Below are positions 48,997 to 64,000 of a stretch of DNA of 64,000 nt, piece by piece. A program made the translations under genes and the position numbers. This DNA comes from Escherichia coli 042 (lineage in GTDB: Bacteria; Pseudomonadota; Gammaproteobacteria; Enterobacterales; Enterobacteriaceae). The stretch lies in the NCBI RefSeq assembly GCF_000027125.1, contig NC_017626.1; one strand, 5' to 3'. Below the pieces are notes generated by a model that saw only the letters and a list, made by a program, of their open reading frames with translations, did not search any database and had not been told where the DNA came from. Within the stretch, counting starts at the first letter, position 1. Every line of letters begins with the position of its first letter.

Positions 48997-50058
48997 ATGC
49001 ATTTACGTCATCTGTTTTCATCGCGCCTGCGTGGTTCATTACTGTTAGGTTCATTGCTTGTTGCTTCATCATTCAGCACGCAGGCTGCAGAAGAAATGCT
49101 GCGTAAAGCGGTAGGTAAAGGTGCCTACGAAATGGCTTATAGCCAGCAGGAGAACGCGCTGTGGCTCGCCACTTCGCAAAGCCGCAAACTGGATAAAGGC
49201 GGCGTGGTTTATCGTCTTGATCCGGTTACTCTGGAAGTGACGCAGGCGATCCATAACGATCTCAAGCCGTTTGGTGCCACCATCAATAACACGACTCAGA
49301 CGTTGTGGTTTGGTAACACTGTAAACAGCGCGGTCACGGCGATAGATGCCAAAACGGGCGAAGTGAAAGGCCGTCTGGTGCTGGATGATCGTAAGCGCAC
49401 GGAAGAGGTGCGCCCGCTGCAACCGCGTGAGCTGGTAGCTGATGATGCCACGAACACCGTTTACATCAGTGGTATTGGTAAAGAGAGCGTGATTTGGGTC
49501 GTTGATGGCGAGAATATCAAACTGAAAACCGCCATCCAGAACACCGGTAAAATGAGTACCGGTCTGGCGCTGGATAGCAAAGGCAAACGTCTTTACACCA
49601 CTAACGCTGACGGCGAATTGATTACCATCGACACCGCCGACAATAAAATCCTCAGCCGTAAAAAGCTGCTGGATGACGGCAAAGAGCACTTCTTTATCAA
49701 CATTAGCCTTGATACCGCCAGGCAGCGTGCATTTATCACCGATTCTAAAGCCGCAGAAGTGTTAGTGGTCGATACCCGTAATGGCAATATTCTGGCGAAG
49801 GTTGCGGCACCGGAATCACTGGCTGTGCTGTTTAACCCGGCGCGTAATGAAGCCTACGTAACGCATCGTCAGGCAGGTAAAGTCAGTGTGATTGACGCGA
49901 AAAGCTATAAAGTGGTGAAAACGTTCGATACGCCGACTCATCCGAACAGCCTGGCGCTGTCTGCCGATGGCAAAACGCTGTATGTCAGTGTGAAACAAAA
50001 ATCCACTAAACAGCAGGAAGCTACCCAGCCGGACGATGTGATTCGTATTGCGCTGTAA
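48997..50058 (+). CDS. yncE: Periplasmic beta-propeller protein YncE
   Basis: 353-aa ORF with signal peptide and repeated propeller blades. Confidence 0.92.
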   Translation: MHLRHLFSSRLRGSLLLGSLLVASSFSTQAAEEMLRKAVGKGAYEMAYSQQENALWLATSQSRKLDKGGVVYRLDPVTLEVTQAIHNDLKPFGATINNTTQTLWFGNTVNSAVTAIDAKTGEVKGRLVLDDRKRTEEVRPLQPRELVADDATNTVYISGIGKESVIWVVDGENIKLKTAIQNTGKMSTGLALDSKGKRLYTTNADGELITIDTADNKILSRKKLLDDGKEHFFINISLDTARQRAFITDSKAAEVLVVDTRNGNILAKVAAPESLAVLFNPARNEAYVTHRQAGKVSVIDAKSYKVVKTFDTPTHPNSLALSADGKTLYVSVKQKSTKQQEATQPDDVIRIAL

Positions 50059-50140
50059 TAGATATGGCGAGGGTGAAAACGGAGAGACTTGCCTGACTTT
50101 TATCACGCCGTATCCGGTACCTTCGTCAGTAATTTGAATT

Positions 50141-50168
50141 TGCCCGGCACGTAGCCGGGCAATTTTGC
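50141..50168. terminator. Hairpin between convergent yncE and ansP
   Basis: gcccggc acgta gccgggc followed by aatttt. Confidence 0.55.
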
Positions 50169-50170
50169 AA

Positions 50171-51670
50171 TTAACTCGCCGTTTCAGGCTTAAACACAAT
50201 TTCCTGTTGTTCTTCATCTTCCTCGACGACTGGCGCAGTGCTGTGAATTTCAGCAACGCGTTTGCGCACACCAAACCAGCCTATAACCAGCAGAATACCG
50301 ATAATCGGCAGCGCCGCGATGGTATAAGTCCCGTTCGGGTAATCGAACGCCATCAGCACGAGGACGCTCAGCAAAAACAGTAATGTCAGCCAGGAAGTGA
50401 AGGGCGCGCCAGGCAGTTTAAAACTCACATCCGCGGCTTTGCCTTCTTTAATCGCTTTACGCAGGCGCATCTGGCACACGATGATAAACGCCCATGAGGC
50501 GATGATTCCCAGCGACGCGAAGTTCAACACAATCTCAAATACGCGCGACGGCACCAGATAGTTGAGGAATACGCCGACGACATACACAACCAGTGTCGCC
50601 AGAATCCCGGCATACGGCACATGCTGACGACTCATTTTCGCCATAAAACTCGGTGCGGAACCGCCCATCGCCATTGAGCGCAGAATACGTCCGGTGCAGT
50701 ACAGACCTGAGTTCAGGCTGGAGAGGGCAGCGGTCAGCACCACAATGTTCATAATGCTGCCGATATATGGCACACCCAGTTTAGAGAAAAACGTCACGAA
50801 CGGACTTTGCCCCGCCTGATATGCGCTCCACGGCAATAACATAACCAGCAACACCACGGAGCCGACGTAAAACAGGCCAATACGCCAAATCACACTGTTA
50901 ATCGCTTTAGGCACCATGGTCTGCGGATCTTTACATTCTCCGGCAGCTGTACCCACCATTTCAATGGAGGCAAAAGCAAACACTACGCCCTGAATCAACA
51001 CCAGCGCAGGCAGCAAACCGTGGGGGAAGAAGCCGCCATTATCGGTAATTAAATGAAAACCAGTGGTGTTGCCATCCAGCGGCTGACCACTACCGAGGAA
51101 CACTGTACCCACGACCAAAAAGGTCACAATGGCGAGCACTTTAATAAGCGCAAACCAGAACTCCATCTCGGCAAACCATTTCACACCGATCATATTCATG
51201 GTGCCAACGATGGTCAGCGCAGCGAGCGCAAAGACCCACTGCGGCACGCCGCCAAACGCACCCCAGTAATGCATATACAGAGCGACGGCGGTAATATCGA
51301 CAATCCCCGTCATCGCCCAGTTGATGAAGTACATCCAGCCTGCAACGTAAGCGGCTTTCTCTCCTAAAAACTCACGGGCATAAGAGACAAAACTGCCACT
51401 GGAAGGGCGGTGTAGCACCAGCTCACCCAATGCACGCAGAATAAAAAATGAAAACAGGCCGCAGATTAAATAGACCAGTGCCAGTGCTGGCCCCGCCATT
51501 TGCAGTCGGGCTCCCGCGCCTAAAAACAAACCCGTACCAATCGCGCCGCCAATGGCGATCATCTGTACCTGGCGATTGCCCATCGCTTTGTGATACCCCT
51601 CTTCGTGGGCATTAAGCCAGCGGCGTTTCGCGGCGTGCTGATCTGAAGTGTCGGTGTCGTGTTTACTCAT
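50171..51670 (-). CDS. ansP: L-asparagine permease (APC family)
   Basis: ORF extends to 51721; start placed at MSKHDTDTSDQHAAKRRWLNAHEEGYHKAM (499 aa); 12 TM. Confidence 0.92.
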   Translation of the reverse strand: MSKHDTDTSDQHAAKRRWLNAHEEGYHKAMGNRQVQMIAIGGAIGTGLFLGAGARLQMAGPALALVYLICGLFSFFILRALGELVLHRPSSGSFVSYAREFLGEKAAYVAGWMYFINWAMTGIVDITAVALYMHYWGAFGGVPQWVFALAALTIVGTMNMIGVKWFAEMEFWFALIKVLAIVTFLVVGTVFLGSGQPLDGNTTGFHLITDNGGFFPHGLLPALVLIQGVVFAFASIEMVGTAAGECKDPQTMVPKAINSVIWRIGLFYVGSVVLLVMLLPWSAYQAGQSPFVTFFSKLGVPYIGSIMNIVVLTAALSSLNSGLYCTGRILRSMAMGGSAPSFMAKMSRQHVPYAGILATLVVYVVGVFLNYLVPSRVFEIVLNFASLGIIASWAFIIVCQMRLRKAIKEGKAADVSFKLPGAPFTSWLTLLFLLSVLVLMAFDYPNGTYTIAALPIIGILLVIGWFGVRKRVAEIHSTAPVVEEDEEQQEIVFKPETAS

Positions 51671-51936
51671 TGCTCTCCCTGATTGCTTTAATGAAAAAGT
51701 CATATAAGTTGCCATGAACAATGTTTATTCATCCTGGCGATGATAGTTATCACCATTATTCTTTATGGGTATAAAACTATCGGCGCAGCATCCTACCCGT
51801 TATCGATAAACGATGCAAAACATCCCCTTACAATCCTGAAGGGGAATAATACAACTGACGAAAAAATGACAAATCCTTTTGCTGGTTAACCTGTGTACTG
51901 TCCTACACTTAATCTTTAAAAGATTGTGAGGGGCAT

Positions 51937-52554
51937 ATGATTAAGGTGTATGGCGTACCCGGATGGGGCTCTACAATCAGTGAGCTGATGCTAACACTGG
52001 CTGATATTCCTTATCAGTTCGTTGATGTCAGTGGTTTTGACCACGAGGGAACCTCACGCGAGTTATTGAAAACCCTGAACCCGTTGTGTCAGATTCCGAC
52101 ACTGGCGCTGGAAAATGACGAGATTATGACGGAGACAGCGGCGATTGCATTGATGGTTCTCGATCGTCGCCCGGACCTTGCGCCACCGGTTGGGCGCGCC
52201 GAACGTCAGCAGTTTCAACGGCTATTGGTCTGGCTGGTTGCTAATGTCTATCCAACATTCACTTTCGCCGATTACCCTGAGCGTTGGGCTCCTGACGCAC
52301 CCGAACAGTTAAAGAATAATGTTATTGAATATCGTAAATCGCTTTATATCTGGCTGAATTCACAATTGACCGCTGAACCTTATGCCTTTGGCGAGCAACT
52401 AACGCTGGTGGACTGTTATCTCTGCACCATGCGCACATGGGGGCCGGGGCATGAATGGTTTCACGATAATGCGCAGAATATCAGCGCGATCGCTGAAGCT
52501 GTATGTCAGTTACCGAAATTACAAGAAGTATTAAAAAGGAATGTCATTATTTAA
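51937..52554 (+). CDS. yncG: Glutathione S-transferase homologue YncG
   Basis: 205-aa GST-fold ORF. Confidence 0.9.
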   Translation: MIKVYGVPGWGSTISELMLTLADIPYQFVDVSGFDHEGTSRELLKTLNPLCQIPTLALENDEIMTETAAIALMVLDRRPDLAPPVGRAERQQFQRLLVWLVANVYPTFTFADYPERWAPDAPEQLKNNVIEYRKSLYIWLNSQLTAEPYAFGEQLTLVDCYLCTMRTWGPGHEWFHDNAQNISAIAEAVCQLPKLQEVLKRNVII

Positions 52555-53093
52555 CAATAATGCCGGAGGTTAATGTTAATGAATCACTGGCGTAATTAAC
52601 TGGATATCCATTTGTTTGCTATGAATAGTAATTAAAGTTGGTACAACTATTTATATGATTGATGTAATTTCGTTTTTTATATGAAATATCAATTTAATAT
52701 AATCCGAAAATAAAACATCTTTTCGCATGTAGAGAAACATGTCGATATGATAGTGCAGTGCAGATCATGTCATCAGGGTAGGGCGGTAGCGTATTTAATC
52801 AGGGAAAGATTACGCAACGCTGCTTTTTTGTATTGAACGATTCGCATTTTATGTTTAAAAATTGCGATATTCCTTATTTCCTGAAGCTGTTTTTATTGCT
52901 TATACATGATCAAATACTCCTTACATAATTAAGGAGAACAAAATGGAACTTAATACACGCCAACAATTTGTATTACTTAAATAGACCAGTGAAGGTACGC
53001 ATCAGAACATCCGGTGAAGTGATTAATATTTCGTTGAATATTTCTCCCGATTTTTGAAACCTGCTGCTGTAGAAATTCTGAACAGGAGGAATT

Positions 53094-53378
53094 ATGCCTT
53101 TAGCAGCCAAACTCACCGACAAAGGCACCCAGCACGACGGTTATTACGAGACCGTCATCACCGCCGGGTCATCCACCGTCTTTATCGATGGTCTTCCCGC
53201 AGCCCGTCAGGGAGATCCGCTGACGCCGCATGCTAAACCGAAGCATCCCCCTCATCCCCGTAAAATCGCCAGAGGTTCTTCAACCGTCTTTATTGACGGC
53301 CTGCCCGCCGCCAGAAGCGGTGATGCTGTTGACTGCGGCGGCGTGGTTATTGGTGGCGGTACGGTAAATATAGGCTGA
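53094..53378 (+). CDS. PAAR-repeat protein (T6SS spike tip)
   Basis: 94-aa ORF with two LPAAR motifs (VFIDGLPAARQGD, VFIDGLPAARSGD); SD aggagg; 18 bp upstream of vgrG. Confidence 0.8.
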   Translation: MPLAAKLTDKGTQHDGYYETVITAGSSTVFIDGLPAARQGDPLTPHAKPKHPPHPRKIARGSSTVFIDGLPAARSGDAVDCGGVVIGGGTVNIG

Positions 53379-53396
53379 TATGTCTGAGAGGTATTT

Positions 53397-55802
53397 ATGT
53401 CCTTAAAAGGTCTTCGCTTTACGCTGGAGGTTGACGGCCAGGAGCCGGACACCTTTGCAGTGGTGAATTTCAGGTTAATCCAGAACCAGTCATATCCGTT
53501 TGTGATGAGTGTGGATGTTGCCAGCGACTCTTTTATGCAGACGGCGGAGATGCTGCTGGAGAAGAAGGCGACACTGACCATCTGGCAGGGCGCAGTGGCG
53601 CAGCGTTATGTCACCGGCGTGGTGGCGGGTTTTGGCATGCAGGAGAATAACGGCTGGCAGATGCGTTATCACCTGCGTATTGAGCCGCCGTTATGGCGGT
53701 GCGGGCTGCGGCAGAACTTTCGTATCTTCCAGCAGCAGGATATCCGGACGATATCGGCCACGTTACTGAACGAGAACGGCGTCACGGAGTGGACGCCGCT
53801 GTTTTATGAGGACCATCCGGCGCGGGAGTTCTGTGTCCAGTACGGGGAGTCGGACCTGGCGTTTCTGTCCCGGCTGTGGGCGGAGGAGGGTCTTTTCTTC
53901 TTTGAGCGGTTTGCGGCGGACAGTCCGGAGCAGAAGCTGACGCTGTGCGACGATGTGGCGGGGCTGTCACAGGCGGGGGAGTTTCCGTTTAACCCGGACA
54001 CATCGGCAGGTGCGGAGACGGAGTGTGTCAGTATGTTCCGTTATGAGGCGCATGTCCGCCCGTCATCGGTGCAGAGCCAGGATTACACCTTTAAGGTGCC
54101 GGACTGGCCGGGGATGTATGAGCAGCAGGGTGAGAACCTGAACGGACAGCTGGAGCAGTATGAGATATTTGATTATCCGGGAAGGTACAAGGATGAACAG
54201 CACGGCAAGGATTTCACGCTGTACCAGATGGAGAGCCTGCGCAGTGATGCGGAAAAGGCCACAGGGCAGAGTAATTCGCCGAAGCTGTGGCCGGGAACGC
54301 GGTTTATGCTGACGGGGCATCCGCAGAAGATGCTGAACCGTGAATGGCAGGTGGTACAGAGCATACTGTCAGGAAACCAGCCGCAGGCGCTGCACGGCAG
54401 CCAGGGAAAGGGAACCACGCTGGGCAATCAGTTAGAGGTGATACCGGCGGACCGGACGTGGCGTCCACGGCTGCAAAACAAACCGAAGGTGGACGGGCCA
54501 CAGAGCGCCATCGTCACCGGTCCTGCGGGAGAGGAAATCTTCTGCGATGAACATGGACGGGTACGGGTGAAGTTCCACTGGGACCGTTATCACGGGATGA
54601 CGGAGGCGAGTTCATGCTGGGTGCGGGTATCGCAGGCGTGGGCGGGGCCGGGGTTCGGTAACCTGGCGATACCACGGGTGGGTCAGGAGGTGATAGTGGA
54701 CTTCCTGAACGGCGACCCGGACCAGCCGATAATCATGGGGCGGACGTACCATGAGGACAACCGTTCGCCGGGCGACCTGCCGGGAACGAAGACGCAGATG
54801 ACCATCCGGTCAAAAACCTATAAAGGAAGCGGATTTAACGAGCTGCGGTTTGAAGACGCCACCAGTAATGAGCAGGTGTATATCCATGCCCAGAAGAACA
54901 TGGATACGGAGGTGCTCAACGACCGGACAACGGATGTGAAACATGACCATACGGAAACCATCGGGAACGACCAGAAGATAACGGTGGTGAAGGGGCAGAC
55001 GGTTCAGGTCGGGACCAGAAAAGAAGGGGGCCACGACCAGAGTATCACGGTGGCGAACGACCGGTGCATCACGGTACGTAATGACCAGACGCTGCAGGTG
55101 ACGAATGACCGGACGGTGAGCGTGAGTAATGATGACGGCCTGTACGTCAGAAATGACCGTAAAGTGACGGTGGAAGGGAAGCAGGAGCATAAGACGACGG
55201 GGAACCATATCAGTCTGGTGGAGGGAAAGCACAGCCTGGTGGTGAAGGGGGACCTGGCGAGGAAGGTGAGTGGCGCGCTGGGGATAAAGGTGGACGGGGA
55301 TATCGTGCTGGAGAGCAGCAGCCGGATAAGCCTGAAGGTGAGTGGCTCGTTTGTGGTCATCCATTCAGGGGGCGTGGACATCGTCGGGCCGAAAATCAAT
55401 CTCAATAGCGGCGGTAGTCCGGGGACGCCGGTGCCGGCGCTGCAACCGGCGGTGCTGAAGACACTGGGGGATGAGAAGAGTGGTGATGGCAGTGATTCCG
55501 GAGAAGAAAATGAAGACTCTGGAGGGAACTGCGTGACCGGAAGTGGTGGTGATGATCGAGGTGACGATGAGGATGAACCTGAAAAATATACTCTCCAGTT
55601 CCATTTTACAGACGATGACGGGATACCGTATTCAGAAACCCGCTACATTGCCTTCTTTGAGGATGGCACGCAGACCCGCGGAGAAACGGATGAAGAGGGG
55701 TATACAGAGCGTTTTTTTGTATCTAGCAAACATGAAATTAAAGTGAAGTTGTTATTTGCGAATGATGATTTTCTCTCAATGGAAGGACACTATGGACGAT
55801 AA
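53397..55802 (+). CDS. vgrG: Type VI secretion spike protein VgrG with C-terminal extension
   Basis: 801-aa ORF with gp27/gp5-like N-terminal two thirds, beta-helix repeat region (TVSVSNDDGLYVRNDRKVTV...), then an acidic Gly/Ser/Asp linker and a ~70-aa C-terminal domain. Confidence 0.9.
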   Translation: MSLKGLRFTLEVDGQEPDTFAVVNFRLIQNQSYPFVMSVDVASDSFMQTAEMLLEKKATLTIWQGAVAQRYVTGVVAGFGMQENNGWQMRYHLRIEPPLWRCGLRQNFRIFQQQDIRTISATLLNENGVTEWTPLFYEDHPAREFCVQYGESDLAFLSRLWAEEGLFFFERFAADSPEQKLTLCDDVAGLSQAGEFPFNPDTSAGAETECVSMFRYEAHVRPSSVQSQDYTFKVPDWPGMYEQQGENLNGQLEQYEIFDYPGRYKDEQHGKDFTLYQMESLRSDAEKATGQSNSPKLWPGTRFMLTGHPQKMLNREWQVVQSILSGNQPQALHGSQGKGTTLGNQLEVIPADRTWRPRLQNKPKVDGPQSAIVTGPAGEEIFCDEHGRVRVKFHWDRYHGMTEASSCWVRVSQAWAGPGFGNLAIPRVGQEVIVDFLNGDPDQPIIMGRTYHEDNRSPGDLPGTKTQMTIRSKTYKGSGFNELRFEDATSNEQVYIHAQKNMDTEVLNDRTTDVKHDHTETIGNDQKITVVKGQTVQVGTRKEGGHDQSITVANDRCITVRNDQTLQVTNDRTVSVSNDDGLYVRNDRKVTVEGKQEHKTTGNHISLVEGKHSLVVKGDLARKVSGALGIKVDGDIVLESSSRISLKVSGSFVVIHSGGVDIVGPKINLNSGGSPGTPVPALQPAVLKTLGDEKSGDGSDSGEENEDSGGNCVTGSGGDDRGDDEDEPEKYTLQFHFTDDDGIPYSETRYIAFFEDGTQTRGETDEEGYTERFFVSSKHEIKVKLLFANDDFLSMEGHYGR

Positions 55803-56583
55803 TAATCAAACTTCTGGACAACCAAAGCCAGAGCCAGAAGAATGTGTGAAAGAGCAAAAAATAACTGATCATTTTAAAATAATGATTGATAAGGCTCGTA
55901 AGGCACAAAAGTTGGTTTTGATAAAAAGAGCAGATGATCTTTTGAGATGGGGAGCACAGGAGGAATATGATTTCAGTAAGATCTTTGGTGTTAAAGGAAA
56001 TAAGGAGGTTAATATAAGAAAATATGGACATAATACAGGTAGGCGCATGAATGCTAGATTTCTTATGATGGATGGTGTGAGAAGATTAATGATTATAGCT
56101 AATGATTTAACAATGAGCAGTTTTATAAATTATACAGGTTGTAATGAATTTGCAGCATTCGTCAGCCCAAGTAAGGATATGCCCTATATAATTAACATAG
56201 GCGCAAAATTTGAGTATAGAGATGGCAAAAAAAATCCAGTAACGGGAAAGGATTCTCATGTTGCTACTTTATGTCATGAAATGTCTCATATTCAGTGGTA
56301 TTATGGGGATAATAAAAAAGGTGGTATGTGGTCACAGGATTATACAACTACTGATAAATATTCAACGTGCAAAGAGGATGAAGTTTCATATGACGAACAT
56401 ATCCGTATTGCAACTAAACTGATCTCTAAACAAAAAGATCAAATATTCGAGAATGCATATAACATAGAAAGATATTTTGAAATAAGATTAATTGAAAGTG
56501 AGATAGACTCGATTAATGATGAAATATTAAGCAATTCAGTTAAGAAAAAAATAGCGGAATTAGAAAAAGCACTTCTCCATTAA
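55792..56583 (+). CDS. Putative T6SS cargo effector with HExxH zinc-metallopeptidase motif
   Basis: 263 codons from ATG 55792, which overlaps the last 11 bp of vgrG; motif TLCHEMSHIQWYYG (HEXXH); no signal peptide or TM segment. Confidence 0.6.
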   Translation: MDDNNQTSGQPKPEPEECVKEQKITDHFKIMIDKARKAQKLVLIKRADDLLRWGAQEEYDFSKIFGVKGNKEVNIRKYGHNTGRRMNARFLMMDGVRRLMIIANDLTMSSFINYTGCNEFAAFVSPSKDMPYIINIGAKFEYRDGKKNPVTGKDSHVATLCHEMSHIQWYYGDNKKGGMWSQDYTTTDKYSTCKEDEVSYDEHIRIATKLISKQKDQIFENAYNIERYFEIRLIESEIDSINDEILSNSVKKKIAELEKALLH

Positions 56584-56606
56584 CTAATAAGTCGAGAAAT
56601 ATATTA

Positions 56607-57428
56607 ATGCTGCAAGCTATAAAAAAAATCATAATAATGACAATCGTAAATATTATATTTTTCTATTCCTTTCAATCGACTGCGGATGAAATGGTTTTAA
56701 TAAAAAAATACGGGTTTGGGCTTGAGAGAGATATCAAAGGAAGGCCATTAATTTATCCTATCGAAAATTATGATGAGTGTAAGAAAAAATGCAATCATAT
56801 GAATTATATAGCGGATGTCAATGCTCAATTAGCTATGAGTAAAAAAAATAACAGGATTTTTGCTAACATAACCTTTACTAACAATAGCTCTACCACGTAT
56901 TTTTTTTCTAAATATTACCTACCTATGAAAGTAAAAGATGGAAAAGGAGATGAATATGATGCGATATGCAAAAAACCATTCAGAATCAACTCTGGGAATA
57001 TCACGTTGGACTACTTAGGTGGTTCATGTCCTTTTGAAATTAATACGAATCCTGAACGGTGGAATACTATTAAACCAGGTCGTAGTTTTTTGTTGAGTAT
57101 AACCTTAAATGATATGTATGCCTTTATACCAGGAGATAATTATTATTTTATAAAATCATCTGGCTATAAATTTGTTAATGACAAGTGGTTTACACTCAAA
57201 TCAATCAATAATATTTTTCTTTATTTTTTAAATTTAAAAATTAATTGTGCTGATGATTTTTTTGATATTAATAATTTTACTACATGTGATAATTTGTTAT
57301 TAGATGAAAAAAAACACTTTTTTATTAATCAGTTATGGGCAATTGAGGATGAAAAAAATTCTATTTACGTCACCCCTGATGAAATTTCTATAAGTATAGA
57401 CGGCGATAACTTAAAGTTGCCATATTAG
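56607..57428 (+). CDS. Putative cognate immunity protein (secreted/periplasmic)
   Basis: 273-aa ORF 23 bp after the effector; N-terminal signal peptide (IIIMTIVNIIFFYSFQSTA/DE); AT-rich; no recognisable domain. Confidence 0.5.
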   Translation: MLQAIKKIIIMTIVNIIFFYSFQSTADEMVLIKKYGFGLERDIKGRPLIYPIENYDECKKKCNHMNYIADVNAQLAMSKKNNRIFANITFTNNSSTTYFFSKYYLPMKVKDGKGDEYDAICKKPFRINSGNITLDYLGGSCPFEINTNPERWNTIKPGRSFLLSITLNDMYAFIPGDNYYFIKSSGYKFVNDKWFTLKSINNIFLYFLNLKINCADDFFDINNFTTCDNLLLDEKKHFFINQLWAIEDEKNSIYVTPDEISISIDGDNLKLPY

Positions 57429-57447
57429 GAATCTGTGAAAGAACAAG

Positions 57448-57936
57448 GTGCGCCGCTTTTTTGTACTAAATAATTCGCATTTTAGTCACGGCAGAGAAGA
57501 AATCCATCTTCATATTGTTTGCGATGTCCCTGATGAACTTATTGATTTCACGTTTGAATGGAAAGGTCAGAAGAAATTATGCGTGGCAGTCTCCTTTTGG
57601 TCAATAATAGCAGAACAAAAGAAAGAGCCAGAAATGACGGTCAGATATTATATCAGTTCTGCTGATTTAACCGCAAAAAAGTTCGCCACAGCGATACGAA
57701 ATCACTGGCACGTGGAGAATAAGCTGCACTGGCGTCTGGACGTGGTAATGAACGAAGACGACTGCAAAATAAGAAGAGGAAACGCCGCAGAATTATTTTC
57801 AGGGATACGGCACATCGCTATTAATATTTTAACGAATGATAAGGTATTCAAGGCAGGGTTAAGACGCAAGATGCGAAAAGCAGCTATGGACAGAGACTAC
57901 CTCGCGTCAGTCCTTGCGGGGAGCGGGCTTTCGTAA
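57448..57936 (+). pseudogene. H-repeat-associated (ISAs1-family transposase) C-terminal remnant
   Basis: 162-aa ORF whose C-terminal ~110 aa ([63 protein letters not shown]...) matches the C-terminus of H-rpt / ISAs1 transposases; N-terminal catalytic part absent. Confidence 0.75.
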
Positions 57937-58044
57937 TCTTGCCCTGGCGATCGAATAGCGCAGATGACGGTGCTCTAAATTTGAATCTAATAAGCCGGTG
58001 TTATTTTTCATCCACTATTAAAATCTTGACACAACGAGGCAACA

Positions 58045-58605
58045 ATGAAAAAAAGCAAAAAAATTAAAACAATGAACCATCAAAATAATAGCGGGATACA
58101 AAATCAACCAGACTATCACATCGAAATAGAAAGAAAAAATATGGTAAGATTGCTTGATGAACGTATTGATAAAGTTTACGGTTCATTGCTAGGACCAATG
58201 AAAAAGAAAAATATAGATAAAATACGTCATTTTACACTTGATGTAATGGTGTTTATTCTTGACACGAACCCTCGTGTTTGTAATAAATTATCCAGGGAAA
58301 TAATATCTTTAGCGCAAAATACCTTCATTGAAAAAAACGTTAATTTTTCAACTTTTAATAATGAACAGCATAGAATAAGGGAGTATATGAATGAAGGTGG
58401 TGGAATACGATGGTTTACATGGGATAACCCCGAGATATCTTTTGTTCGTGCATCTTTTGGCCTTTTTGTCAAAATGGAAACAAAAGGTGATCATGAACAT
58501 ACACTAAGTGACACATTTCTTCAGATTGTTGAGTGTGTTAATTTAAATATAGGACTTATTGCAAAAGATGAACTGGTAAAAATCATCAATAAACACTTTA
58601 TGTAA
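58045..58605 (+). CDS. Hypothetical protein (AT-rich orphan)
   Basis: 186-aa ORF in a low-GC block downstream of the H-rpt remnant; no recognisable motif. Confidence 0.4.
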   Translation: MKKSKKIKTMNHQNNSGIQNQPDYHIEIERKNMVRLLDERIDKVYGSLLGPMKKKNIDKIRHFTLDVMVFILDTNPRVCNKLSREIISLAQNTFIEKNVNFSTFNNEQHRIREYMNEGGGIRWFTWDNPEISFVRASFGLFVKMETKGDHEHTLSDTFLQIVECVNLNIGLIAKDELVKIINKHFM

Positions 58606-58964
58606 AAATATACTTCTGTATGAAGTTATAATAATACAGTGAAAATCATCAAATTATTAATTAATGATGCTCTTTGTTATTATTTACTTTTTACAATTGA
58701 ATCAGGGGTTTTATTTTCTGTAGTAAAGTTGTATTTTTGCTAAAGGTGATAAAGTACAGGTGTTTATATTAAATTAGAACTCCCCTTAATTATCATAAAT
58801 ACAAAGAGGTGAAAACATGCGGGGGTGTTTTCGTTAAATAATACCATGGTGAATTAATAACATGCTATCAGTGATATACATATTTTCTCTAACAAAGTTT
58901 TAGTAAAATTACGCGTAGTAAGAAGATTCCGCCAAAGATTCCATATAATAATATTAAGGTTGTT

Positions 58965-59600
58965 ATGAATAAAGGTAATAGATTACAACAGTTAGAAGAT
59001 GCGTGTCGTGATATTATTAAAATTAACATGTGGTATGAACTCCCCGATTATGTATTTTTTTCAATATCTGACACCATCGATGGGACGAGTGATGAATTCG
59101 CAATAAATGTGTATAAAAATATCGATAAAAGTCTTCTTGAAATATTATTGCATCCATCTGTTTTACTGTCAGTTGTTGAGTCCTTACAAAGTAATACTAT
59201 AGCTGAGTATATCGTGAAATTGTCTGAAATAGAGATGAATTATGACGACTTGCTAATATCGGATGTTAAATCATGTCTTTTTATCAACTATGGATTCAAT
59301 AACAGTGAATCGGTTGCGCTATTTAATAAGATTTACCGCGAATTAAAAGATATTGTAAAATCATCAAGAGTACATATAGATCATGAGAAAGATATTTTTG
59401 ATGGCCTTAATCAAATCTTGGCTTTTTCCGATAATAATAAACATGAGTATTTTTTATATATAAAGGCATATTGGCTCAGTTTATACTTTTGTGAAATTTC
59501 ACAGAACGTGAGAGAAAGAGATAAGTTGTCATTTTATTATAATGAATTTTCTGTCCGATTTCCTAATGTTGTCCTATATCCGTCATGCTACAAATTGTAA
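58965..59600 (+). CDS. Hypothetical protein (AT-rich orphan)
   Basis: 211-aa ORF in a low-GC block; no signal peptide; no recognisable motif. Confidence 0.4.
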   Translation: MNKGNRLQQLEDACRDIIKINMWYELPDYVFFSISDTIDGTSDEFAINVYKNIDKSLLEILLHPSVLLSVVESLQSNTIAEYIVKLSEIEMNYDDLLISDVKSCLFINYGFNNSESVALFNKIYRELKDIVKSSRVHIDHEKDIFDGLNQILAFSDNNKHEYFLYIKAYWLSLYFCEISQNVRERDKLSFYYNEFSVRFPNVVLYPSCYKL

Positions 59601-59779
59601 GGCTTGGCACCTGAAATTCATTGTTAATTCGAGACGCTTGATTGTCCACTATATCAAAACAGTCATACCTCGGAATTTTCTCGCATTAGTCCATACGGTA
59701 TTCAATATTCGCAACTGTGCCCTGAAATAAAAAACTGCAAAACTGCTTTTTCTTGACCTGTCCCAATCACGCAAGACTA

Positions 59780-59926
59780 CTTTTAGTAGAGACCTCCAGC
59801 TATGTCGATTTTAGTGCCGCCCGCGCATTTTATACAAAACAGGGCTTTATTAATGAAGCTATAATACGCAATTACTATGATGTTGGTGAGGATAAATTAA
59901 TCTTCACTAAAAATATGCAATCGTGA
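59780..59926 (+). pseudogene. C-terminal remnant of a RimI-like GNAT acetyltransferase
   Basis: Hand translation ...LLLVETSSYVDFSAARAFYTKQGFINEAIIRNYYDVGEDKLIFTKNMQS* resembles the C-terminal motif of RimI-type GNATs; frame is closed by TGA about 55 codons upstream, so no full-length gene. Confidence 0.4.
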
Positions 59927-59992
59927 GATAAAATATGCTTTTAACTCATATTGAAACATTGCTTAAGCAACTTGGTTGCTGCATATGATTCT

Positions 59993-60562
59993 TTAGCCCG
60001 CGGTGACTCGCTTGCCGCTGGTAACAAACGTGCCAGCACCTAAGTGATGTAGTGTATTGAGTTTATCATCATCAAACTGCCAGCGGCCTTCGACAAATAC
60101 CCGTGCGTCTGCCGCTGCTGATACCACCTCGCCAAACAGCGTGTCGTATTTTTCTTGCGCGGAAGTCGCAGGTAGCAAGCGGCACTCCATCCACGCCAGA
60201 CATTTTTCCTCGACCAGAGGCAAACCAAGTACCGGACCTTTCACTACTGGAATGCCGTAGCAATTAAATTTATCTTCTTCACGACCCGACACACTTCCCA
60301 CCGCCCACGTCCAGTTAGTTGCTGCAACGCCCGGGATAACGATGCCAAATTTACCGTTACGTTCAATCAACTCCCTGGTCCATGTCGATTTATCTACCAC
60401 GATCGCAACACGTGGCGGTTCAAACTCTACCGGCATCGACCAGGCCGCAGCCATCACATTACGTCGCTGTGATTTTTCATCAAAAGTTGTTATCAAAATA
60501 GTTGGGCCATGATTTAACAGACGGCTGGCATGGTGTAATTCGACAGGGATGAATCGGCTCAC
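59993..60562 (-). CDS. yddH: Flavin reductase-like protein YddH
   Basis: 189-aa ORF at the conserved position before nhoA. Confidence 0.9.
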   Translation of the reverse strand: MSRFIPVELHHASRLLNHGPTILITTFDEKSQRRNVMAAAWSMPVEFEPPRVAIVVDKSTWTRELIERNGKFGIVIPGVAATNWTWAVGSVSGREEDKFNCYGIPVVKGPVLGLPLVEEKCLAWMECRLLPATSAQEKYDTLFGEVVSAAADARVFVEGRWQFDDDKLNTLHHLGAGTFVTSGKRVTAG

Positions 60563-60736
60563 GGTATCGCCTCGCTAAGAAGGGGGTTTTAAAAGCGTAG
60601 CTCGTAACGCTATAAGTAACGAAATTAACGGGATTGGCGATTTGCGAACGTGATGCATGTCCGCGATCGCACAAAATAGCCGGTGCGGCGTCTATTCCAG
60701 GTTATAAGTTGAGAAAACCACTAAGGGAAACGCCTG

Positions 60737-61582
60737 ATGACGCCCATTCTGAATCATTATTTTGCCCGTATTAACTGGTCGGGAGCTGCTGCGGTCAATA
60801 TTGATACGCTGCGTGCATTGCACCTGAAACACAATTGCACCATTCCATTCGAAAACCTCGACGTTTTGCTGCCAAGGGAAATACAGCTTGATGATCAATC
60901 GCTGGAAGAGAAACTGGTGACAGCCCGTCGTGGTGGTTACTGTTTTGAGCAGAATGGCGTGTTTGAGCGGGTGTTACGCGAGCTGGGGTTTAACGTTCGC
61001 AGCTTGTTAGGGCGCGTAGTGTTATCAAATCCGCCAGCATTACCGCCGCGCACCCATCGTTTGTTGTTGGTGGAACTGGAAGGGGAAAAATGGATTGCTG
61101 ATGTCGGTTTCGGTGGACAGACGCTAACCGCGCCGATTCGTTTAGTTCCCGATCTCGTGCAGATCACGCCACACGGAGAGTATCGGTTGTTACAGGAGGG
61201 TGATGATTGGGTGTTGCAGTTTAATCATCATCAGCACTGGCAGTCGATGTACCGTTTTGATCTCTGCGAGCAGCAACAAAGCGATTATGTAATGGGCAAT
61301 TTCTGGTCTGCGCACTGGCCGCAGTCGCATTTTCGCCATCATTTGCTGATGTGCCGCCATTTGCCGGACGGCGGCAAGCTGACACTGACCAATTTTCATT
61401 TTACCCATTATGAAAATGGGCACGCGGTGGAGCAGCGAAATCTACCAGATGTGGCGTCGTTATATGCCGTGATGCAGGAACAGTTTGGTCTGGGCGTAGA
61501 TGATGCGAAACATGGCTTTACTGTGGATGAGTTAGCGATGGTGATGGCGGCGTTTGATACGCACCCGGAGGCGGGAAAATAA
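60737..61582 (+). CDS. nhoA: N-hydroxyarylamine O-acetyltransferase
   Basis: 281-aa arylamine N-acetyltransferase ORF with catalytic Cys in RGGYCFEQN. Confidence 0.94.
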   Translation: MTPILNHYFARINWSGAAAVNIDTLRALHLKHNCTIPFENLDVLLPREIQLDDQSLEEKLVTARRGGYCFEQNGVFERVLRELGFNVRSLLGRVVLSNPPALPPRTHRLLLVELEGEKWIADVGFGGQTLTAPIRLVPDLVQITPHGEYRLLQEGDDWVLQFNHHQHWQSMYRFDLCEQQQSDYVMGNFWSAHWPQSHFRHHLLMCRHLPDGGKLTLTNFHFTHYENGHAVEQRNLPDVASLYAVMQEQFGLGVDDAKHGFTVDELAMVMAAFDTHPEAGK

Positions 61583-61593
61583 TTTATGTCAGG

Positions 61594-61658
61594 TTGCCGG
61601 ATGCGGCGTAAACGCCTTATCCGGCATACATAGACCTGATAAGCGAAGCGCATCAGGC
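61594..61658. repeat. REP/BIME palindromic units
   Basis: gccggatgcggcgtaaacgccttatccggc followed by a second palindrome cctgataagcgaagcgcatcagg between convergent nhoA and yddE. Confidence 0.8.
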
Positions 61659-61665
61659 AACGGTT

Positions 61666-62559
61666 TCAGAATTCAATTGCCCATTCGGCATGAAACAAAA
61701 TCACCGCTGTGCCAGAAATGGTGACTTTCTCCGGTTGGTTATTGCGAATTGTCACCGTCACTTCAATCACGCCGTCACGCCCCAATGCGCGCCCCTGATG
61801 GCCTTTAACATGCAACACGTTGCCATCGTGGGGCAATACGTTGTGATGTACCAACCATGCACCCATCGGGCCATTGGCATTGCCAGTCACCGGATCTTCC
61901 ACAATACCAATCGCAGGCGAGAACATGCGACCATCGGTTTCATTTTTGCCTGGGCGGATCTGGAACGGGAAGAAACCATTGCAGCCAATCTGTTTGCTGA
62001 TAGCGGTCAGCGCAGCAAGATCAGGCGAAAGGGCGTCGATATCCACTTCTGGTTTCAGTGGGATCATCACTTTTGAGTGTCCTGTGGTTGCCACCTGAAT
62101 TGGCAAGCCTGACAAAATATCGTCCTCAGTGAGATGAAGCGCGTTGATAATCGCTGCACGTGTTTCACCTTCCAGCGGTGGCTCAAAGCCCGGCGTACCT
62201 TGTTCCAGCGAAATACGATAATCATCGTTGTGATTTTCGATAGTCACGCGATGTTTTCCTGACAGTGACGTTTGCCAGACCGTGCAATTTCCTAAACCTA
62301 ACACCTTCGCACGTACATAGTGCGCAGCTACTGTCGCGTGACCACAAATCGGCACTTCAACTGTTGGCGTAAAGTAGCGGATGCGCACATCGCTGTCGTC
62401 GCTGTGCAGCAGAAAAGCAGTTTCCGAATGACCTAATTCGCGGGCGATAAGCTGCATTTGCGCTTCACTGAGATTATCGGCGGGGAAAACAACACCGGCA
62501 GAATTGCCGCGAAACGGTTGTGAGGTAAAAGCATCGACGTGGTACACCTGCGGTTTCAT
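61666..62559 (-). CDS. yddE: PhzF-family isomerase-like protein YddE
   Basis: 297-aa PhzF-fold ORF. Confidence 0.92.
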   Translation of the reverse strand: MKPQVYHVDAFTSQPFRGNSAGVVFPADNLSEAQMQLIARELGHSETAFLLHSDDSDVRIRYFTPTVEVPICGHATVAAHYVRAKVLGLGNCTVWQTSLSGKHRVTIENHNDDYRISLEQGTPGFEPPLEGETRAAIINALHLTEDDILSGLPIQVATTGHSKVMIPLKPEVDIDALSPDLAALTAISKQIGCNGFFPFQIRPGKNETDGRMFSPAIGIVEDPVTGNANGPMGAWLVHHNVLPHDGNVLHVKGHQGRALGRDGVIEVTVTIRNNQPEKVTISGTAVILFHAEWAIEF

Positions 62560-62637
62560 TAACGTTCTCCTGTGGCTGGAGAACTATCATAGCCTGCAAG
62601 TGGCCGGAGAGCGAAGGGCTATCCGGCCAGGGTGAAA

Positions 62638-63318
62638 TTATCGCCGCGAGCGCACAATCTGATACCGACGAGTAAAGTACTCAAACGGCGCGCTCCACAC
62701 ATGCACCAGTCGGGTGAACGGGAAGAGCAGGAAGATGGTCATTCCCAACACCAGATGCAGGCGGAAAACGAACGCTACGCCGTTAAGCATTTCTGACGAT
62801 CCACCACGGAAAGTGACAATGCTTTGCGCCCAACCCACCAGCTTCATCATTTCGCTACCATCAGGATACTGTGCTGAAAACGGTATGGTACTTAGCCCCA
62901 GCAGACACTGAATCAGCAAAATGCTCATGATGATAATATCCGGCGTAGTGGAAGTGGCACGCACGCGCTGATTAGTCAGCCTGCGCCACAGCAGTCCTGC
63001 GCCGCCAATCAACGTCAATACACCGCAAATACCACCGAGCACCATCGCCATCTGCTGTTTTACCGCCACCGGCAGAAACCACGCGTACATCCAGTGCGGC
63101 GTTAACATGCCGAACAGGTGCCCGAAGAAAATCCCCAAAATGCCGATATGGAACAGATTCGACCATATCACCATCCCGCGTTTATCGAGCATCTGACTCG
63201 AGGAGGCGCGCCAGGTATACTGCCCGTAGTCGTAGCGCAGCCAGCTGCCGAGGAAAAACACTGTCGCACAAATGTACGGGTAGATATCATAAAAAAAGAC
63301 GTTCAGATACTGAATCAT
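62638..63318 (-). CDS. narV: Respiratory nitrate reductase Z gamma subunit
   Basis: 226-aa multi-TM haem-b subunit ORF. Confidence 0.93.
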
Positions 63319-64000
63319 TTCCCACCTCCCGCACTGATGTCGACATACTGCGGCGCGACATCCTGGCTAAAGCGTCGCTGATATTGATTAAGCGGCGAGC
63401 TGTCACACGCCGTGGCGTTATCTTCAATAAACTTCACCTGTTCCTCTTCCCACACCGCATCCAGTGCCTGGCGGGTGTCATCGCGCTCCTCACTGTTCAC
63501 CTGTTTTGTGACACTGTCACTTGAAAGTGTACTTCCTGCCAGTTGCAACAGGGTGTCAAATAACGCGTACCACGGTGCCTCGCGTTGTTTTAAGCGTCCG
63601 CCAAGCAGGGCGAGGATCGGCGCAACGTTGAGCAAGCCTTCTTTCGCCTGATCGTCCGGCAGTACGCTTAAGTACTCCAGATACAGCGGTAGATAATCGG
63701 GCAGTTCTCGACAATCCAACTGCAGGCCGACCTTTTCATACTCCGCCAGCAGGTCCACCATTGCCTGGCCGCGATCGCGGGACTCGGCATGAACATGTTC
63801 GAACAGCAGCAGCGATGTGGTACGTCCACGGTCAAACACTTCGCACCATTCGGCCTGTTTATCCAGCAGCGGCGCGTTAAGCAGGTTGCGGGTAAAATCC
63901 GTAAGCATCGGTGCGTCGCGGCGGATCAACGCCAGCGCGTCCTCCTTACATTCCCATAACAGCTCGTCCGGATACTCCATCAACAGGCCGATCACTTTGA
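63315..64000 (-). CDS. narW: Nitrate reductase Z assembly chaperone NarW (5' end outside window)
   Basis: ORF ...[26 protein letters not shown]... runs to the window edge; the start codon lies beyond position 64000. Confidence 0.88.

Follow-up and report, generated by a model that had tools for sequence, protein, structure and literature searches.

What does the orphan spike island at the ansP-yncG / yddH-nhoA site of the Escherichia coli chromosome deliver, and what protects the cell that carries it? In the 64,000-nucleotide (nt) stretch of E. coli 042 that we analysed (hereafter the window), an open reading frame (ORF) of 263 amino acids (aa; 55792..56583, + strand) directly follows the vgrG gene of a PAAR-vgrG-effector-immunity island of type VI secretion system (T6SS) genes. 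A sequence-only reading of this DNA had taken the ORF for a zinc-metallopeptidase toxin, carried by VgrG and held in check by the product of the next gene. We find that it very probably encodes an M35-like (aspzincin) zinc metallopeptidase that serves as a T6SS cargo toxin and is paired with the downstream immunity gene. The gene is already known: RefSeq names its product (WP_000342577.1) "peptidase M35" or "M35 family metalloendopeptidase", the segment with effector and partner is common in E. coli (megablast found it in 640 of 5426 complete genomes, 587 of which carry it at ≥99% identity), and the compartment in which a near-identical copy is toxic has been published.

The effector begins within vgrG. 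The 3' end of vgrG reads GGA CAC TAT GGA CGA TAA, and the effector ATG (55792) lies 11 nt inside that gene, 4 nt past a Shine-Dalgarno-like GGAAGGA (55781..55787, +) that can be read within the last vgrG codons. The ORF list holds an alternative TTG start at 55756, but the overlapping ATG is the start in RefSeq and in all homologues. This arrangement suggests that the two genes are translationally coupled. The N-terminus of the effector is hydrophilic (within its first 50 aa, no 15-mer exceeds a Kyte-Doolittle score of 0.5) and carries no signal peptide. The G+C content (GC) is 56.6% in vgrG, 32.4% in the effector gene and 28.2% in the next gene, for 48.3% in the whole window, and it is already down to 45% in the segment encoding the C-terminal module of VgrG. 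The motif HEMSH (aa 162-166; 56275..56289, +) is an instance of HExxH, for which the composition of the effector gives a chance expectation of about 0.015. H162, E163 and H166 are invariant among 20 homologues, down to 30% identity, and this alignment predicts that the two histidines bind zinc and that E163 is catalytic. HEMSH also falls on the HExxH of canonical aspzincins. The facts on which the sequence-only reading was built (overlapping ATG, HEMSH, no signal peptide, a secreted next product, AT-richness) were thus all confirmed.

That reading had suggested a structure prediction and a structural search as a check, and both agree with a zinc metallopeptidase, as do the motifs. The AlphaFold2 (AF2) model of the effector (predicted local distance difference test, pLDDT, 88; predicted template modelling score, pTM, 0.87) shows the fold of the M35 catalytic domain, and its top fold matches are exclusively aspzincins. 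A family profile built from the 20 homologues matched AsaP1 (E = 2e-6) and GfMEP (E = 1e-3) in the PDB; only this profile succeeded, as a search of PDB sequences with the effector sequence by itself gave nothing significant.

The M35 family is defined by HEXXH together with GTXDXXYG, the Asp of which is the third zinc ligand (PMC7215534). In the window protein, Asp183 (56338..56340, +) occupies an invariant column, matched in the alignment to the GTxDxxYG Asp of aspzincin domains that are fused to VgrG, Rhs and PAAR, and we predict that it is the third ligand. The family motif is GGM-x-[TS]-x-D; the window reads GGMW-S-Q-D183-YTT and some relatives read GTSD or GTDD. Relative to the canonical H+9 spacing, eight residues are inserted between HExxH and Asp183. 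The distant relatives used in the alignment carry the canonical HEMSHF..GGTxDxxYG..NADNFEYY. Further along, the invariant or near-invariant NAYNIERYF (aa 221-229; 56452..56478, +) is the counterpart of the M35 C-terminal helix: aligned with the canonical domains and with AsaP1 and GfMEP, it falls on NADN(F/H)EY(Y/F), with Asp replaced by Tyr, Glu kept and Tyr replaced by Arg. In GfMEP the NADNxEY helix lines the specificity pocket, to which it contributes acidic residues. With NAD changed to NAY and Tyr to Arg in this helix, specificity for Lys is not to be assumed.

One claim of the sequence-only reading did not hold. It had placed a third ligand of gluzincin type in the acidic run KEDEVSYDEH, which we rejected because these columns are variable or gapped in the homologues while Asp183, in a degenerate GTxD, is invariant. 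Since Asp183 is invariant, NAYNIERYF is invariant or nearly so, both stand at canonical positions, and the acidic run is not conserved, the effector is a divergent aspzincin and not a gluzincin. Past the M35 helix it carries a helical C-terminal extension (aa ~232-263; 56485..56580, +; AF2 helices at 235-240 and 243-262). In the 20-homologue alignment these helices occur in the close long-form homologues (55-63% identical; P0005-P0013) and in one more distant member (P0021), and the remaining family members are shorter and do not have them.

The gene has the attributes of a T6SS effector: it adjoins vgrG and PAAR genes, encodes no Sec signal and lies in conserved synteny. In Salmonella, Buttiauxella, Franconibacter, a metagenome contig and both types of T6SS cluster in E. 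coli, vgrG is likewise followed by an M35-like gene and then a partner gene. The vgrG and effector genes overlap by 8-14 nt in eight of nine junctions, and purine-rich GGAGG-like elements stand at the same position in the related loci examined. Each M35-like gene that we fetched is followed by an ORF of 200-310 aa without Pfam domains. GC falls from ~59% to ~33% between vgrG and cargo in all related loci, which fits the AT-rich, swapped cargo envisaged earlier. An exhaustive profile search gathered 251 representatives of the M35-like domain; among the distant ones it is joined to a VgrG in P0111, to an Rhs core in P0129 and to a PAAR domain in P0077. The toxin domain is hence used in all three T6SS delivery formats.

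How the effector might be loaded is suggested by the end of its VgrG. The window VgrG (vgrG / tssI, 801 aa; 53397..55802, +) is of the T6SS-2-like type (TIGR03361, E = 5e-180), and its first 600 aa are 96-97% identical to the VgrGs of E. coli T6SS-2 clusters and to VgrG-O2 of strain BCE049. It has no DUF2345 Pfam domain. After an acidic/Gly-rich linker it ends in a module of ~70 aa (aa ~728-801; 55578..55799, +; KYTLQFHFTDDDGIPYSETRYIAFFEDGTQTRGETDEEGYTERF..IKVKLL), a putative adaptor. We compared this module across the window and the loci L004, L006, L008, L014, L015 and L017. It ends every compared VgrG that precedes an M35-like gene (KYTLQFHFTDDDGIPY...GYTE...IKVKLL; 47-72% identity), and is common even to DUF2345-type VgrGs, whose first 600 aa share only 28% identity with those of the window type. 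It is absent from VgrG-O1 of BCE049, which is 93% identical in the N-terminal spike part and has another cargo. A Pfam search with the C-terminal 162 aa gave no match and did not confirm the label "TTR-like" (transthyretin-like). The distribution of the module suggests that it is probably a cargo-specific adaptor for the M35-like effector. Carriage by VgrG, as first proposed, is borne out by this module, by the overlapping starts and by the co-immunoprecipitation of a paralogue (PMC10673891).

Two published studies bear on the function of the pair. Of the seven T6SS effector modules that Sun et al. 2021 predicted in the mastitis strain BCE049, module 5 includes an "M35-peptidase", which they tested: a PelB fusion arrested the growth of E. 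coli, whereas cytoplasmic expression did not (PMC7904677). The protein in question (FQU84_13640, WP_000342575.1) is identical to the window effector at 262 of 263 positions (99.6%; the substitution is N242D), and the periplasmic action proposed from the sequence has thus been published for an almost identical protein. In the second study (Commun Biol 2023), M35^PAR of E. coli PAR proved toxic; the downstream AKO63_2956 neutralised it, and in co-immunoprecipitation M35^PAR bound VgrG solely via the product of a gene fragment, DUF2345^PAR (PMC10673891). The PAR chromosome has a frameshifted vgrG, then a gene of 262 aa and one of 308 aa; their products are 30% identical to the window effector (E = 2e-33) and 31% identical to the window immunity candidate over the core (E = 3e-21). 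The protective role assigned to the downstream gene is therefore backed by a conserved partner family and, in this paralogous pair, by neutralisation. Literature searches for "aspzincin" with type VI secretion and for "peptidase M35" with T6SS effector returned no papers.

Given the frameshift, the published stand-alone DUF2345 gene of PAR looks as if it were the 3' portion of a disrupted vgrG. The fragment would then include the ~70-aa module, and the binding of M35^PAR may be due to the module rather than to DUF2345. The window VgrG has the module and no DUF2345. The T6SS-1 cluster of PAR holds two tandem cassettes of vgrG, M35-like gene and partner (L014 10770-14636 and 15120-19429); the first effector shares 34% and the second 30% identity with that of the window, and the second vgrG is the frameshifted one.

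The cognate immunity candidate (273 aa; 56607..57428, +) combines a Sec-type signal (aa ~1-26, nt 56607-56684) with a beta-sandwich core. Its N-terminus is strongly hydrophobic (Kyte-Doolittle 2.35 at aa 8-22) and leads into STA|DE, as expected of a Sec signal. The eight downstream proteins that we collected are homologous (23-42% identity) and share the hydrophobic N-terminal signal and two invariant cysteines (C121 and C141 in the window protein), a pattern that fits a disulfide-bonded periplasmic protein. NCBIfam and PHROGs gave no match for either the effector or the immunity protein.

The AlphaFold model of this protein is of medium quality (mean pLDDT 66.6, with five uneven models), with a beta-sandwich core at ~85-90 in two stretches. 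Its best match is the zymogen of AsaP1, and the mature-only M35 structures 1g12 and 1eb6 were not matched. The effector model aligned with 161 residues of the same 293-residue AsaP1 chain. Given this coverage and the absence of matches to 1g12 and 1eb6, the part matched by the immunity model must be the pro-domain. In Foldseek searches of AFDB50, the matches after its own family were M35 precursors of a sponge and BsuPI-domain inhibitors (E ~1e-7). We found no sequence-level link of the immunity family to the AsaP1 pro-domain or to any solved protein, so that the pro-domain idea is drawn from the fold alone; a hidden Markov model of the family, run against 189 fetched proteins including the N-terminal extensions of distant M35-domain proteins, matched its own family only. 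The order of the genes, protease then inhibitor, is the reverse of that in a zymogen, which makes a simple gene split unlikely. These models allow the tentative proposal, to which we give somewhat less than an even chance, that effector and immunity protein resemble a two-gene M35 zymogen, in which the antidote would be a free-standing, Sec-exported relative of the pro-domain (a BsuPI-like beta-sandwich) that plugs the active site within the periplasm. We found no paper describing a two-gene, zymogen-like mechanism for a T6SS effector/immunity pair.

Two database entries of this family are irregular. In BCE049, the immunity gene (L003 21062-21833) departs from the window copy by single-nucleotide indels at three homopolymers (A8, T8 and A7) and has been annotated as two short ORFs; the indels may be errors of sequencing, or they may truly inactivate the gene beside an intact toxin gene. 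The AFDB entry A0A447XXP0, a "putative zinc-dependent metallopeptidase" of 348 aa from E. coli, matches the immunity protein at 100% identity across 212 columns and probably represents an effector-immunity ORF of one assembly that was mis-called or fused by a frameshift.

We propose that the effector, which has no signal peptide, is synthesised in the cytoplasm, where ribosomes ending vgrG probably re-initiate at the overlapping ATG, and that it binds the conserved C-terminal module of its own VgrG. Firing of the PAAR-VgrG spike would then carry it into Gram-negative neighbours. In the target periplasm, zinc would be held by His162, His166 and Asp183, with Glu163 as general base, and the cutting of an envelope protein or peptide would lead to growth arrest; toxicity would depend on catalysis. 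Producer and kin would be protected by the Sec-exported periplasmic beta-sandwich protein, which would most likely block the active site as an M35 pro-domain does. The unit of exchange would be the VgrG tail, the effector and the immunity gene, moving between vgrG genes as one AT-rich cassette.

Other explanations share part of this evidence. A Glu as third ligand, the idea of the sequence-only reading, would imply, and the label "M35 domain of VgrG2b" used in PMC10673891 suggests, a gluzincin of the type found at the C-terminus of VgrG2b (DUF4157). The HEXXH motif, the periplasmic toxicity, the small downstream immunity gene and the association with VgrG do parallel VgrG2b and PA0261, and acidic residues lie 28-36 aa past HEMSH. 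Yet the fold matches are those of aspzincins, M35 is the family picked by both Pfam and the profile search of the PDB, DUF4157 is not matched, and the acidic run varies where Asp183 does not. We rejected membership of the VgrG2b/DUF4157 family on these grounds; this explanation is largely refuted and is the least probable of those considered.

A toxin directed at eukaryotic hosts, like the fish-pathogen exotoxin AsaP1, would account for the closest solved relatives being secreted toxins and proteases that act on eukaryotic proteins, and for the carriage of the gene by extraintestinal pathogenic and avian pathogenic E. coli (ExPEC/APEC) strains; the downstream protein would then not be an immunity protein. 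However, the near-identical BCE049 protein is toxic in the E. coli periplasm (PMC7904677), the partner gene with its signal peptide is strictly conserved and the paralogue's partner neutralises toxicity (PMC10673891), and BCE049 that had lost its effector locus was not attenuated in infected mice (PMC7904677). We regard a host-directed role in place of the antibacterial one as improbable; a toxin with both roles is conceivable. Slightly less probable again is a protein with the M35 fold that is no protease and poisons otherwise, either as a zinc binder like Candida Pra1 or as an RNA N-glycosidase like lyophyllin. Proteins of the Pra1 type are without the Glu of HExxH, and the window family retains the complete catalytic set (H-E-x-x-H and Asp) without variation; the partner protein, moreover, resembles protease pro-domains and protease inhibitors.

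Several points weigh against the assignment to an M35-like cargo toxin with its immunity gene. The Pfam profile Aspzincin_M35 (PF14521) matches the effector below threshold and in part only (E = 0.005, model positions 48-104); it reaches E ≤ 0.001 in two of the 20 relatives and E ≤ 0.1 in 15 of them. The "YG" that follows the Asp in aspzincins is missing, and the pocket motif is changed from NAD to NAY. There are no T6SS core genes within the window, and firing hence depends on a cluster elsewhere in the genome. The published experiments concern other alleles, and we found none on the exact allele of the window. The BCE049 study reports no interbacterial competition assay with the M35 effector, and virulence in mice was unchanged when its whole effector locus was deleted (PMC7904677). 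We mapped AKO63_2955/2956 to the RefSeq features of PAR by gene order alone. The papers that we found hold no data on protease activity, metal dependence or HEXXH mutants for any member of the subfamily, nor on secretion or competition for this effector.

Comparison with known systems places the pair among its relatives. Module 5 of BCE049 (FQU84_13630-13640) occupies the same yncG ... yddH-nhoA site, with the same order of PAAR, vgrG (801 aa) and effector. It differs from the window by the homopolymer indels in its downstream immunity gene and by a second PAAR-vgrG module upstream. This extra module (L003 12158-16202) encodes a PAAR protein, a 654-aa VgrG, a DUF2169 protein and a PAAR-like protein, and its presence at the same site indicates that the locus accumulates cassettes in tandem. 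M35^PAR shares with the window the families of effector and partner, the overlapping vgrG junction and the C-terminal module of VgrG. It is unlike the window in lying inside a T6SS-1 cluster behind a frameshifted DUF2345-type VgrG, and in being a short form without the C-terminal helices. PMC10673891 equates it with the toxin domain of VgrG2b, which our fold and profile data do not support.

The toxin domain of P. aeruginosa VgrG2b is described by its authors as a gluzincin resembling thermolysin, in which Glu983 is the ligand and which mostly goes under the annotation DUF4157 (Wood et al. 2019, PMC6899460). The VgrG2b C-terminal domain is toxic only in the periplasm, is neutralised by PA0261, a small downstream periplasmic protein, and is preceded by a TTR-like linker (PMC6899460). 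Like the window and BCE049 effector, it is a HEXXH zinc peptidase linked to the T6SS spike and toxic in the periplasm; unlike it, this domain is covalently fused to VgrG and belongs to the DUF4157 gluzincins, where the window has a separate aspzincin cargo. The M35 enzymes of MEROPS, GfMEP (1g12), AsaP1 (2x3a) and deuterolysin (1eb6), are only 17-21% identical to the window effector. They are secreted zymogens, whereas the window effector has neither signal peptide nor covalent pro-domain; a fold resembling the pro-domain that is part of M35 zymogens appears, in the models, in the separate downstream protein. A parallel in layout is VgrG1-Tle1 of enteroaggregative E. coli (EAEC; Flaugnatti et al. 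2016, as cited in PMC6899460), where a separate cargo directly follows a vgrG with a cargo-specific C-terminal extension. There the cargo is a lipase and the C-terminal sequence is unrelated, and for the window module we only infer the binding of cargo.

The island lies at the site that carries rhsE in K-12, and it opens with a gene for a PAAR spike-tip protein of 94 aa (53094..53378, +), identified by NCBIfam NF033420 (E = 1.4e-46, above the curated cutoff) and by RefSeq. The gap between yncG and this gene (52555-53093) is 540 nt of non-coding, AT-rich DNA (36-40% GC) with promoter-like matches at 52676-52703 (10/12) and 52722-52751 (9/12), in a scan that overall was not above shuffles. Across 52500-60000, the counts of promoter and terminator scans did not exceed those of shuffles, so that nothing can be inferred on internal promoters or operon ends, and Rfam gave no match on 50000-64000.

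Downstream of the immunity gene lies the 3' fragment of an ISAs1-family (H-repeat) transposase (57448..57936, +; NCBIfam NF033564, E = 7.5e-34, profile positions 201-314 of 314), a pseudogene in RefSeq. This 3' third adjoins the immunity gene as at Rhs loci and marks the downstream edge of the cassette. Past the fragment are two AT-rich ORFs (~30% GC; 58045-58605, 186 aa, and 58965-59600, 211 aa), which are without signal peptides and without matches in Pfam, NCBIfam and PHROGs; they may be orphan immunity genes left by earlier cassettes. A 57-aa ORF just before yddH (59753-59926) resembles, by eye, the C-terminal end of an acetyltransferase and is possibly a gene remnant at the island border.

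Beyond prior work, this analysis adds the VgrG module and the pro-domain-like partner family. The gene itself adds little as a discovery; more would be gained from a substrate in the cell envelope, the real prize. The aspzincin cargo and the VgrG2b-type gluzincins are two unrelated families of HEXXH toxins of the T6SS that have been lumped as "M35" in the literature. It is likely the short C-terminal module of VgrG, and not DUF2345 as such, that recognises the cargo, which would be useful for engineering the loading of the spike, and mimicry of a pro-domain is a testable mode of immunity. If true, an aspzincin lineage would have been re-tooled for a substrate of the bacterial envelope (NAD to NAY, Tyr to Arg), with its immunity borrowed from the latency of zymogens.

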